This document shows, one piece after another, positions 28,990-30,176 of a DNA stretch of 64,000 nucleotides. The DNA is from a virus (Duplodnaviria; Heunggongvirae; Uroviricota; Caudoviricetes), in the IMG/VR virus record IMGVR_UViG_3300045988_158256; one strand, given 5' to 3'. Position 1 is the stretch's first letter, and every line of letters starts with the position of its first letter. The notes beneath the pieces are model-generated. The model saw nothing but the letters and a program-made list of their open reading frames with translations, did no database searches and was not told the origin of the DNA. The position numbers were made by a program, and so were the translations under genes.

Positions 28990-29652
28990 ATGCTCGCCTG
29001 GAGGCTGAATTTGCAGCTGAGAATGAACATACCACCCAGGGCGACTAGGACTGTTTTTTGTGTCGGTAGCGGTCCGTCACTCACTCGTGAGGACTGTGCT
29101 GCTATAGAAAAAACTGGCTGTTCAATCATCGCGGTTAACAATTCCTGGCAGATGTTCGATGACATTTATGCCTTATACGCCGGTGATTTGTCATGGTGGA
29201 AGCAATACGGATCCACCATACCGGGAGGGAGATTCCGCAAAGTGACAGCCAACATGGCGGCGGCGAAATCATTTTCGTTGGAGTACAGGCGATATTGTGG
29301 ACCGGCGGAAGGGGTAAATAGCGGCGCGCAGGCTATCAGTCTGGCTGCTGAATCAGGGGCTGAAGTAGTGGTATTAGTCGGCTATGACTGTTCTCTGCAA
29401 AACGGCCTTCATTGGCATGGCGCGCACCCTCAAGCACTACGGAATCCAACGCAGGTGTCTATTTCAAAATGGCAACAGCAGTTCCTGGATACCCGCAAAA
29501 AACACGCAGATTTACATATTTTGAATGCAAGTAGGAGCAGTGCAATTCAATGTTTCCCAAGAATAAATTTAGAGGCAGTGATCGCGTTATTATCGTCGGC
29601 AGTGGCCCAAGCGCCGCAAACTTTGTTGCGCCGCGCGGAGTGCCGATTATAG
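28990..29652 (+). CDS. CstII/MptE-like (DUF115-like) protein, paralog 1
   Basis: VFCVGSGPSL...IIAVN and VVLVGYDCS resemble GT42 / MptE-like fold; start may be the ATG at 29023. Confidence 0.45.
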   Translation: MLAWRLNLQLRMNIPPRATRTVFCVGSGPSLTREDCAAIEKTGCSIIAVNNSWQMFDDIYALYAGDLSWWKQYGSTIPGGRFRKVTANMAAAKSFSLEYRRYCGPAEGVNSGAQAISLAAESGAEVVVLVGYDCSLQNGLHWHGAHPQALRNPTQVSISKWQQQFLDTRKKHADLHILNASRSSAIQCFPRINLEAVIALLSSAVAQAPQTLLRRAECRL

Positions 29653-30176
29653 CGGTCAATGGGGCCATCGACTGGCTTAACCGCGCTTCTTATTTTTTCA
29701 CCCTTGATCCATCCCCAGACAATATGCGGCGCGTTGGTCGTGGCCGCCGTCGCCGTGGTGTTTGTTATTGCATGGCACTACCCGATGTTAAAGAACGTGA
29801 AGTCAGAGATGGCGTTCTGTGCTTCCGTCGTGTGGCTGAACGCGGCATGGAGCCAAAAAATACGAATTCTCCCGAGTGGTGGGCGTGGCGCTGGTCCGCA
29901 CATTTCGGCCTTTGCGAAGATGAGAATGAAATTGCCAGCGGCAATAGTGCATATGGTGCTCTGAACCTGGCTTTCCATATCGGATTCAAACATGTAGCTC
30001 TGGTGGGCGTTGACGCTACGCAAGAACTACGCGTTCACTCCGGCGGCACGCCAAAAAATCTAAGTCACCTGCCTTTGTTATTCCAGTCTGCGCGTGAACA
30101 GATTGACGTTGTTTCATGCGGGAAAATGGGAGGTATTCCGCAGATGACTCTTAAAGAATGGCTGAAGAATACATGA
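29550..30176 (+). CDS. CstII/MptE-like (DUF115-like) protein, paralog 2
   Basis: [10 protein letters not shown]...IIAVN and VALVGVDAT; colinear similarity to paralog 1; overlaps paralog 1 by about 100 nt. Confidence 0.45.

Follow-up and report, generated by a model that had tools for sequence, protein, structure and literature searches.

Sequence comparison identifies pmgO-pmgP-pmgQ as a conserved cassette in ~45 loci from a diverse set of phages and prophages of Gram-negative bacteria, an arrangement that is new here. Table 1 places the cassette and its control signals in the window, the whole 64,000-nucleotide stretch of Caudoviricetes DNA that was analyzed. We propose, with confidence that falls a little short of even, that the three proteins form a cytoplasmic glycan-building module that draws on host nucleotide sugars and most probably modifies a phage structural protein. 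The proposal starts from the fold, the paralogy of PmgO and PmgP, the conserved cassette, its gene fusions, its genomic placement, and its dispensability; catalysis, donors, acceptor, and biological role are what we infer.

Table 1. Positions of the cassette genes, neighboring genes, and control signals in the window
Feature	Position	Strand	Description
LPpmgL	27893-27911	+	Late promoter; P1 record
PpmgN	28794-28820	+	Predicted sigma-70 promoter; P1 annotation
Oppp	28833-28849	-	C1 repressor operator; P1 annotation
pmgN	28851-29048	+	Small ORF; phrog_2350
pmgO	28990-29652	+	220 aa; ORF list and P1 record
pmgO/pmgP overlap	29550-29652	+	103 nt; pmgP in -1 frame relative to pmgO
pmgP	29550-30176	+	208 aa; ORF list and P1 record
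ppp	30158-30850	+	Lambda NinI-type Ser/Thr metallophosphatase
pmgQ	30847-31548	+	GT8-like retaining GT-A glycosyltransferase (predicted); phrog_1962
OpmgRa, OpmgRb, PpmgR	31550-31615		C1 operators and promoter; P1 annotation and operator scan
pap	33185-33691		

Nearly all loci with enough flanking sequence carry O, P, and Q together. All three genes occur in Enterobacteriaceae, Zhongshania, Microbulbifer, Brevundimonas, and Sinomicrobium, Methylophilaceae and Longimicrobiales loci contain P and Q only, and every named host is a diderm bacterium. Natural fusions join the cassette members to one another (O-P in P0051, P-Q in P0221 and P0288, Q-P in P0305) and to methyltransferases (Q-P-methyltransferase in P0271, methyltransferase-P in P0308). 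Eleven loci contain inserted SAM and FkbM-type methyltransferases, and extra GT-A/GT2-like genes are found in others. No genes for sugar-nucleotide, sialic-acid, or nonulosonic-acid synthesis, or for flagellin, recur near the cassette in the ~45 loci. An earlier note on this DNA had singled out the GT-A-like gene at 30847 as belonging with pmgO and pmgP; this gene is pmgQ, and its near-universal co-occurrence and its fusion to PmgP-like domains identify it as their true functional partner. A first scan of viral contigs returned only P1 clones.

The placement of the cassette is the basis for considering a virion protein, rather than DNA or the envelope, as probably the target. HK97-like contigs have tightly packed or overlapping genes, with the cassette placed between the gene for the major head protein and that for head-tail adaptor Ad1 (L097, L105, L111), directly behind the portal gene (L112, L116), or amid connector genes (L100, L163). 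The neighbors of the cassette in lambdoid prophages are lysis genes on one side and terminase genes on the other, and in P1 pmgR is directly downstream. The genes in Pseudescherichia and Serratia stand among inverse-autotransporter/Big_1 genes and not among virion genes. In five Pseudescherichia/Enterobacteriaceae loci, O, P, and Q are interspersed with genes for an inverse autotransporter (IAT_beta plus seven Big_1 domains) and other Big_1 proteins, and in a Serratia locus an O gene adjoins two Big_1 proteins. Of the three targets for a modification pathway that the earlier note left side by side (DNA, virion, or host envelope), gene context favors a protein, probably one of the virion. Morons that act on the host are also typically inserted between structural genes, a point that counts against a virion target.

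PmgO and PmgP had been described as adjacent proteins with colinear motifs (V-x-VGSGPS, IIAVN, and VG-x-D), and this description is confirmed. The motifs are 22-VFCVGSGPS-30, 46-IIAVN-50, and 127-VVLVGYD-133 in PmgO and 13-VIIVGSGPS-21, 33-IIAVN-37, and 149-VALVGVD-155 in PmgP. Residues G28, P29, S30, L31, D35, N50, D66, S111, G112, G131, Y132, D133, C134, S135, H141, H143, N179, and R182 are invariant in the PmgO family, as are N37, G38, D53, N58, R94, R114, G131, N132, S133, G153, D155, and H173 in the PmgP family. The conserved domain of PmgO extends to about residue 202 and is followed by an unconserved read-through tail of ~18 residues, and PmgP carries a ~35-aa insertion (EP..SPEWWxWRWS) within the PmgO-type fold. 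The start of pmgO is uncertain, M1 (28990) or M12 (29023); homologs span only ~80% of its length, and the model is disordered over residues 1-15.

Pairwise BLASTP aligns only the N-terminal 36 residues of PmgO and PmgP (E 0.003), whereas the family profiles align over 161 columns in hhalign (probability 98.2%, E 3.1e-14, 22% identity), and each protein matches the other's family in PHROGs. This similarity is far beyond chance, as expected of the paralogs they had been taken for, and it reflects an ancient rather than a recent duplication, which pairwise alignment had been suggested as a means of dating.

The overlap of the two genes, put at about 100 nt in the earlier note, is a conserved feature of the cassette. 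All 22 distinct adjacent pairs have an out-of-frame O/P overlap, of 4-133 nt, and 20 of them place pmgP in the -1 frame. In the window, the pmgP ATG straddles the codon for conserved Cys188 of pmgO (cAA TGT TTC), and an AGGAG Shine-Dalgarno motif 12 nt upstream of this ATG is made up by the Ser-Arg codons of the conserved N-x-S-R motif of pmgO. A programmed -1 frameshift that would fuse PmgO to PmgP was considered, given a canonical heptamer, A_AAT_TTA, in the pmgO frame at 29565-29571. The heptamer is missing from the divergent homologs L004, L090, and L102, and the hypothetical product would drop the last helix of PmgO, unlike the natural fusion P0051. For these reasons the heptamer was judged a chance occurrence, and simple translational coupling is preferred.

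The models of both proteins (AlphaFold2 pLDDT 85.8 for PmgO and 93.8 for PmgP) adopt the single Rossmann-like GT-A-variant fold common to the solved family members 5mu5 and 8sd5, and their closest structures are Maf flagellin O-glycosyltransferases. PmgO is a soluble protein with an MptE-like/DUF115 (Maf/CstII/WaaZ-type) fold, for which enzymatic activity is predicted. Membership in PF01973 (MptE-like/DUF115, Maf_flag10; gathering threshold 34.6 bits) holds by sequence score for the wider family (P0051, 44.6 bits; P0257, 44.1 bits) and is sub-threshold for the P1 sequences (PmgO, 23.6 bits; PmgP, 20.9 bits). Single-family O and P profiles were too weak against the PDB, and significance comes only from the structure models and a joint O+P profile, which matches CstII by sequence with an E value of 1.4e-5, as compared to 0.11 for MptE; CstI is also well ahead of MptE. 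A structure search of BFVD matched only uncharacterized MptE-like phage proteins. Profiles and models thus support the CstII/MptE-like fold that had been recognized from motifs.

CstI and CstII of Campylobacter jejuni (GT42; PDB 2p56 and 1ro7) align with PmgO/PmgP at GxGPSL, the Asn after strand 2, (N/T)SG, and the GxD strand, and the joint profile matches the GT42 features CMP-binding GxGPSL, Asn31, Ser132, and the GxD strand. The alignment stops at CstII residue 179, leaving unmatched His188, which we take to be the catalytic base, and lid residues Tyr156 and Tyr162, which presumably bind phosphate. Unlike CstII, PmgO has invariant H141 and H143 in an HWHG motif 8-10 residues past the GYD strand, and PmgP has invariant H173 in an LSHLP motif. 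Sialyltransferase Pfam families do not match either protein. The Maf enzymes (PF01973), represented by M. magneticum Maf (5mu5) and those of C. botulinum and G. kaustophilus, belong to the same Pfam family and are also cytoplasmic, with 16-17% sequence identity to PmgO/PmgP. PmgO and PmgP differ from them as phage-borne, bare ~190-aa catalytic cores that lack the N- and C-terminal acceptor (flagellin)-binding domains and occur as a diverged paralog pair with a GT8 enzyme. [quoted passage not shown] The unaligned lid, the sub-threshold Pfam scores of the P1 proteins, and the missing Maf acceptor-binding domains are observations against the proposed glycan-building module.

E. coli WaaZ (RfaZ), the Kdo III transferase of the K-12/R2 LPS core, probably shares the nucleotide-sugar-binding fold of PmgO/PmgP. 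WaaZ matches PF01973 over residues 1-195 with an E value of 6.9e-7, which is below the cut-off, and its hhalign matches to the O and P family profiles are at the motif level only (probability 14-18%). The WaaZ equivalog model TIGR04437 (cut-off 200 bits) gives 11.9 bits (E 0.1) for PmgP and no match for PmgO, and a faint WaaZ_KDO_III match appears among the precomputed Pfam hits of P0051. WaaZ differs from PmgO/PmgP in being a 283-aa, single-copy protein encoded chromosomally in the waa cluster.

PmgQ, the third conserved member, is by sequence a GT8-like retaining GT-A glycosyltransferase. Its invariant residues are D79-L-D81 (DxD), G148, D149, H208, G209, and P213, and Q150 is present in at least 90% of the family. 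PmgQ of P1 has no Pfam match, and PF01501 is matched weakly by 2 of 26 family members (best E 0.033). Profile matches are to Gat1/GlyT (6mw5, E 2e-7), glycogenin (2e-3), and 5gvv (GlyE-type, 6.5e-3), enzymes that also share the DxD, GDQG, and H-G-x-P-x-P motifs; PmgQ is shorter (~200-230 aa) and is linked to the PmgO/PmgP pair.

In P1, the region of PpmgN and Oppp controls a pmgN-pmgO-pmgP-ppp-pmgQ unit. Oppp has four mismatches (by eye) to the consensus used in the operator scan and lies outside the matches with up to three mismatches. LPpmgL, positioned through the P1 annotation (locus L001, 5094-5112, shifted by +22799 to the window), could serve in late infection to transcribe the genes from pmgL to pmgS; no strong terminator-like sites were found from LPpmgL to 33132. 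A C1-controlled sigma-70 promoter means that expression of the P1 unit is not strictly late, which also counts against the proposed module. The small ORF pmgN encodes 51 aa from the start used in P1 (28893) or 65 aa from that used in P7 hdmA (28851), shares 59 nt with pmgO as counted from the annotated start of the latter, and is conserved together with the cassette in P1-like phages only. The GC content of the cassette (0.48-0.52, versus 0.483 for the window) gives no compositional sign of recent horizontal acquisition into P1.

The earlier note had placed both neighboring phosphatases, ppp and pap, with the cassette in one operon of sugar- and phosphate-handling enzymes. This part does not hold, as pap belongs to the next unit and ppp is specific to one lineage. 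Lying between pmgP and pmgQ, ppp is a lineage-specific insertion rather than a cassette member: only P1/P7-type genomes have it there, whereas in the remaining P1-like relatives and in every other phage type P and Q adjoin directly or have a methyltransferase or glycosyltransferase gene between them. ATGA coupling of pmgP to ppp applies at an alternative ppp start, with ATGA at 30173-30176; the P1 record starts ppp at 30158, for a 19-nt overlap. The ppp/pmgQ junction is a true ATGA at 30847-30850. pap, which resembles a polynucleotide kinase phosphatase domain, lies behind two C1 operators and was not found among genes recurring beside the cassette. On distribution and operon structure, both phosphatases were rejected as members of the pathway. 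pmgM, a VRR-NUC nuclease gene, is linked to the cassette only in P1-like phages.

Our analysis allows us to outline how the module might work. PmgO and PmgP, as anciently diverged paralogs of a minimal ~190-aa MptE-like/DUF115 domain, would supply the nucleotide-sugar-binding fold common to the Maf nonulosonic-acid transferases, GT42 CstI/CstII, and probably WaaZ. Translationally coupled through the conserved out-of-frame overlap, they most likely act as a pair, by forming a heterodimer or by carrying out successive steps, with GT8-like PmgQ as the third partner. Made during lytic growth, the proteins are presumably cytoplasmic, because no transmembrane or hydrophobic segment is predicted in any of the three; a membrane or secreted location was rejected on the same ground. 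A short glycan would be built from host nucleotide sugars, with CMP-Kdo as the likely donor for PmgO/PmgP and a UDP-hexose for PmgQ.

The CMP-Kdo assignment follows from the sugars available. E. coli K-12 is not known to make CMP-sialic, CMP-pseudaminic, or CMP-legionaminic acid, and we take CMP-Kdo, the donor of WaaZ, to be the one CMP-activated ulosonic acid in all hosts. Because K-12 supplies no CMP-Neu5Ac, the label "alpha-2,3-sialyltransferase" that RefSeq and PHROGs give pmgO by homology is almost certainly wrong as a function. The donor gap and the unmatched CstII lid residues both counted against PmgO, and a true sialyltransferase function was rejected. Maf enzymes use CMP-Kdo for Ser/Thr O-glycosylation in E. 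coli (bioRxiv 10.1101/2020.06.03.131540).

The outcome would be a non-essential decoration of the virion, as in mycobacteriophages. Mycobacteriophage virions are glycosylated by phage-encoded glycosyltransferases; these are cytoplasmic, are non-essential for plaques, and target late structural proteins, and the cassette is likened to this system by its genomic placement. The mycobacteriophage enzymes belong to different families and act in different hosts than the diderm bacteria of the cassette. A more specific form of the proposal, which we consider doubtful, is that P1 and many phages of Gram-negative hosts O-glycosylate their own virion protein or proteins with a short Kdo-containing glycan, using a PmgO/PmgP heterodimer and the GT8 enzyme, and that in other phages the glycan may also carry methyl groups. 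On this view, a -1 frameshift in some HK97-like relatives might even extend a small connector-like protein into the first of the enzymes.

The main rival is that the cassette remodels the LPS core or envelope, which we regard as unlikely. PmgO/PmgP would add Kdo like WaaZ, and PmgQ would act like the GT8 core glucosyl- and galactosyltransferases; for all three, the substrate would be lipid A-core on the cytoplasmic side of the inner membrane. An altered or truncated core would mask a phage LPS-core receptor, resulting in superinfection exclusion, or would spare progeny adsorption to debris. The LPS core is the P1 receptor, and overexpression of WaaZ reportedly truncates the core. Membership of WaaZ in the same Pfam superfamily, the weak hhalign, TIGR04437, and P0051 matches, the diderm hosts, and the PHROGs category of PmgQ ("moron, auxiliary metabolic gene and host takeover") are consistent with this reading, as is the fact that GT8 is the family of LPS outer-core transferases, with waaJ and waaO adjoining waaZ in K-12. 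That WaaZ and GT8 enzymes both build the LPS core means that the parts fit an LPS target as well as a virion protein. However, in most non-P1 loci the cassette genes overlap flanking head and connector genes, leaving no space for a promoter of their own, so they would be silent in lysogens and made minutes before lysis, too late for surface LPS. The P1 unit is also repressed by C1, the TIGR04437 score is far from its cut-off, and the nearest solved relatives of PmgQ (Gat1, glycogenin, and GlyE) are protein-directed, with LgtC-type enzymes not among the matches.

Glycosylation of a host protein such as flagellin or a surface adhesin, for host takeover or, in chromosomal islands, for adhesin decoration, is improbable. 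The Maf structures and the loci with autotransporter/Big_1 genes suggest such a target, but most loci are clearly phage structural regions without adhesin genes, the Maf flagellin-binding domains are missing, and a lytic phage would have no evident gain. Still less probable is that PmgO/PmgP are ATP-dependent pyrophosphokinases of the MptE/thiamine pyrophosphokinase type acting on a small molecule. Their Pfam family is named after MptE; however, the joint profile places CstII well before MptE, the obligatory partners, including covalently fused ones, are glycosyltransferases and sugar-type methyltransferases, and no pterin, thiamine, or nucleotide-metabolism genes co-occur. Sugar modification of phage DNA or RNA, suggested by neighboring pmgM and pap, is very improbable given that the cassette travels with head/connector rather than replication genes, that pap is unlinked elsewhere and pmgM linked only in P1-like phages, that to our knowledge no nucleic-acid glycosyltransferase has a Maf/CstII or GT8 fold, and that P1 DNA, which is cut, cloned, and sequenced as a matter of routine, is not known to show hypermodification.

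The proposed virion decoration would be non-essential, and P1 knockouts and CRISPRi show that the cassette genes are dispensable for plaques (PMC10695390; PMC9024508). These are the only experiments found on the genes, and the knockouts contradict the P1 operon label "putative morphogenetic function". In 24 viable single-gene P1 knockouts, which are not named, antirestriction was unchanged (PMC9024508). The literature searched, on pmgO/pmgP, phage DUF115 proteins, and virion glycosylation, contains no functional study of these genes and no equivalent of mycobacteriophage virion glycosylation for P1 or other phages of Gram-negative hosts. The earlier statement that no such function is documented for this region is nearly right, the exceptions being the homology-based RefSeq/PHROGs labels of PmgO and PmgQ, the latter reading "glycosyltransferase". 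Published bottom-up LC-MS/MS of P1 virions reports no glycosylation, which also counts against the proposal, and does not mention glycan analysis.

P1 is a classic model phage and a standard tool for transduction. If the proposal is correct, virion glycosylation extends from mycobacteriophages to phages of Gram-negative hosts and has been overlooked in a phage that is among the oldest models. It would bear on phage immunogenicity, clearance in therapy, virion stability, and adsorption, and it would correct a misleading sialyltransferase label that is spreading in databases. PmgO/PmgP would be a new minimal, paired Maf/CstII form that may use CMP-Kdo, and a possible tool for glyco-engineering in E. 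coli.

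Window positions 28800-31600 are 99.4% identical to phage P1 (NC_005856) and also match P7, SJ46, and RCS47. The products of pmgO and pmgP had been described in an earlier note as tandem paralogs sharing colinear motifs, all of which are present and in the same order. Pairwise BLASTP aligns only the first 36 residues of the two proteins (E 0.003). Comparison of the family alignments (34 sequences each) with hhalign extends over 161 columns (probability 98.2%, E 3.1e-14, 22% identity), with an insertion of ~35 residues in PmgP relative to PmgO, and each protein cross-matches the other's PHROG family. 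Both families already co-occur in Proteobacteria and Bacteroidota, which places the duplication long before P1. Judged from these alignments, PmgO and PmgP are real but ancient paralogs.

Genes and sequence elements of the P1-like region, and regions with a PmgO-like frame in HK97-like relatives
Feature	Sequence	Position	Strand	Source
pmgM	window	28248-28826		
pmgN	window	28851-29048		
pmgO (P7 hdmB)	window	28990-29652	+	ORF call, P1 and P7 records
pmgP (P7 hdmC)	window	29550-30176	+	ORF call, P1 and P7 records
A_AAT_TTA heptamer	window	29565-29571		
ATGA at the end of pmgP	window	30173-30176		
ppp	window	30158-30850	+	ORF call, P1 record
pmgQ	window	30847-31548	+	ORF call, P1 record
Terminator-like hairpin	window	33132-33160		Terminator scan
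pap	window	33185-33691		
PmgO-like frame region	L097	5196-5573		
PmgO-like frame region	L105	5040-5366		
PmgO-like frame region	L109			
PmgO-like frame region	L110	385-720		
PmgO-like frame region	L123			
PmgO-like frame region	L154	5591-5962		

The CstII/MptE-like fold proposed for both paralogs is supported by structural models and a joint profile. Pfam MptE-like matches are below threshold (PmgO, 23.6 bits; PmgP, 20.9 bits; cut-off, 34.6), and some relatives score above the PF01973 threshold. AlphaFold2 modeling on the family alignments gives confident structures (pLDDT 85.8 for PmgO and 93.8 for PmgP). In fold comparisons, PmgO and PmgP score, respectively, 13.8 and 13.4 with the Maf glycosyltransferase 5mu5, 11.5 and 12.9 with M. 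jannaschii MptE/HPPK (8sd5), 10.8 and 10.7 with CstI (2p56), 10.5 and 9.5 with SteA (9hmy), 7.4-10.3 and 7.5-9.5 with thiamine pyrophosphokinases, and 7.8-9.1 and 7.1-9.3 with GT29 sialyltransferases. By sequence alone, the joint O+P profile matches CstII (E 1.4e-5), then CstI, LOS sialyltransferase, Maf (0.079), and MptE (0.11). It aligns with CstII at the GxGPSL motif, the Asn that follows strand 2, the (N/T)SG motif, and the strand carrying GxD, whereas the lid with CstII His188 falls outside the alignment. The Kdo III transferase WaaZ of E. coli likewise has a sub-threshold PF01973 match (6.9e-7). The fold by itself is compatible with a CMP-ulosonic-acid transferase or a pyrophosphokinase. 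PmgQ has no Pfam match; its profile (26 sequences) matches GT8 structures, namely Skp1 alpha-galactosyltransferase 6mw5 (E 2e-7), glycogenin (2e-3), and GlyE 5gvv (6.5e-3), in agreement with the GT-A-like assignment made earlier. D79-x-D81, G148-D149, and H208-G209 are invariant in the family, and Q150 is present in at least 90% of sequences.

Relatives were gathered from species-representative genomes (18 loci), IMG/VR (27 non-P1 loci), and individual contigs, and O, P, and Q genes were detected with home-built HMMs. All three occur together in nearly every locus with sufficient flank. The loci belong to Enterobacteriaceae, Zhongshania, Methylophilaceae, Microbulbifer, Brevundimonas, Sinomicrobium (Bacteroidota), and Longimicrobiales, and the full trio was detected in most of these groups; only P and Q were detected in loci L099 (Methylophilaceae), L104 (Longimicrobiales), L120, and L174. 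The PmgP family is modest, with 562 representatives among 1.84 billion. Natural fusions join O-P (protein P0051), P-Q (P0221, P0288), Q-P (P0305), Q-P-SAM methyltransferase (P0271), and methyltransferase-P (P0308). Eleven loci have SAM or FkbM-type methyltransferases inserted in the cassette, and five have a GT-A-like protein; GT2-like glycosyltransferases are further accessory insertions. The two phosphatases that the earlier note had counted in the same enzyme block do not belong to it: ppp lies between P and Q in P1/P7-type genomes only, P and Q overlapping in other P1-like plasmids (L117, L119, L122, L127, L128), and pap never recurs with the cassette.

The obligatory association of O and P with a GT8 protein, together with the frequent methyltransferases and extra glycosyltransferases, argues for a module that builds glycans and against a pyrophosphokinase, and the covalent fusions strengthen this reading. 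We consider it probable that the three genes form a glycosylation cassette. No sugar-nucleotide synthesis genes recur in the neighborhoods of the collected loci, and every named host is diderm, so host CMP-Kdo would most simply be the sugar donor for PmgO and PmgP. Use of CMP-Kdo in E. coli has been demonstrated for Maf enzymes (bioRxiv 10.1101/2020.06.03.131540).

Sequence prediction finds no membrane segments in the cassette proteins, so the acceptor must be accessible from the cytoplasm. In HK97-like loci the cassette lies among head genes: terminase, portal, protease, major head protein, O-P-(methyltransferase)-Q, Ad1 (the head-tail adaptor, directly 3' of the cassette), Neck1, and tail in L097, L105, and L111; terminase, portal, and O-P-GT-Q in L112 and L116; and Ad1, Hc1, one gene of no assigned function, and a cassette that begins with O-P in L100 and L163. 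Genes in all seven loci are contiguous or overlapping. In lambdoid prophages of Citrobacter rodentium and relatives the cassette is 3' of the lysis genes and 5' of terminase, in a podovirus-like contig it is likewise 3' of the lysis genes, and in P1 it is immediately 5' of pmgR. Placement within late head/connector operons, with no space for promoters of its own, favors a substrate made concurrently, and hence a virion protein. A phage structural protein is thus our tentative choice of target, at slightly less than an even chance. The main rival is remodeling of the LPS core, in which both WaaZ and GT8 enzymes act; late-only expression, and C1 repression in P1, fit it poorly. The main text on the P1 virion proteome by bottom-up LC-MS/MS does not mention glycan analysis.

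On Pseudescherichia and Serratia chromosomes, O, P, and Q are interleaved with inverse autotransporter and other Big_1 proteins. In L091-L095 (Pseudescherichia and an Enterobacteriaceae MAG) the interleaved genes encode a ~1170-aa inverse autotransporter (IAT_beta plus seven Big_1) and other Big_1 or RCC1 proteins, and L003 (Serratia plymuthica) has two O copies, one beside two Big_1 proteins. These loci may serve adhesin glycosylation.

The overlap of pmgO and pmgP, put at about 100 nt in the earlier note, is 103 nt. An overlap, of 4-133 nt, is found in each of the 22 distinct O-P pairs that lie side by side, and in 20 of these pmgP is read in the -1 frame. The P1 pmgP start codon sits within the conserved Cys188 codon of pmgO, and its Shine-Dalgarno sequence is made of pmgO's conserved Ser-Arg codons. 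This arrangement suggests that the two proteins are made in a coupled fashion, in roughly equal amounts, and act together. The ATGA said to couple pmgP to ppp exists, although the P1 record starts ppp upstream of it; the ppp/pmgQ junction is also ATGA. A canonical -1 slippery heptamer in the pmgO frame of the overlap would yield a PmgO(1-194)-PmgP(8-208) fusion; it is absent from the divergent homologs L004, L090, and L102 and is probably a chance occurrence.

Six HK97-like relatives have no ATG, GTG, or TTG 5' of the conserved CIASGPS motif in the PmgO-like frame, which is at -1 relative to a ~95-aa upstream ORF. This ORF has a weak head-tail connector match (phrog_2322) and ends in an AT-hook-like motif, KRGRPRK. 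In three of the six, heptamers or homopolymer runs (G_GGC_CCC, A_AAC_CCT, A_AAA_AAG) lie 38-44 nt 5' of CIASGPS. These relatives may make connector-like-PmgO fusions by programmed -1 frameshifting.

In the P1 record, a predicted sigma-70 promoter and the C1 operator Oppp lie just 5' of pmgN, the late promoter LPpmgL lies 5' of pmgL, and two more C1 operators, also found as operator matches, lie 3' of pmgQ. A terminator scan finds no strong site between pmgL and 33132. The region's strongest terminator-like hairpin (11 bp stem plus T-run) lies between pmgS and pap, which suggests that pap may not share a transcript with pmgR-pmgS. CRISPRi knockdowns indicate that pmgO, pmgP, ppp, and pmgQ are non-essential, in agreement with the P1 knockout survey as cited there (PMC10695390); in that survey, 24 of 29 knockouts lacked a plaquing or antirestriction defect (PMC9024508). 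pmgN scores as essential by CRISPRi, yet its deletion is harmless, as is knockdown of every gene downstream of it in the unit (pmgO, pmgP, ppp, pmgQ) (PMC10695390), a pattern that simple polarity does not explain.

Fold-level labels are already present in RefSeq and PHROGs: the P1 record's original "putative morphogenetic function" is now "alpha-2,3-sialyltransferase" for PmgO and "glycosyltransferase" for PmgQ in RefSeq. Literature searches found no functional study of pmgO, pmgP, or pmgQ, and to our knowledge the O/P paralogy, the three-gene cassette with its fusions, the conserved overlap, and the head-gene-cluster placement are undocumented. Many NCBI entries for PmgO- and PmgP-like proteins now carry the name "norphogenetic protein", a misspelling that occurs in the P1 record's note on pmgM, and "phosphohydrolase" is used for some PmgQ homologs, apparently inherited from the adjoining ppp. 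PmgM itself resembles a VRR-NUC/Holliday-junction-resolvase-like nuclease (Pfam 21.3 bits, just under cut-off; phrog_5702, 5e-27), and its gene lies 5' of the cassette in all P1-like relatives and nowhere else. Pap, labeled an "acid phosphatase", has its matches in the HAD phosphatase domain of polynucleotide kinase/phosphatase (PF25109, 6e-12; phrog_415, 7e-55), and a role as a nucleic-acid 3'-phosphatase seems more likely than one in sugar-phosphate chemistry.
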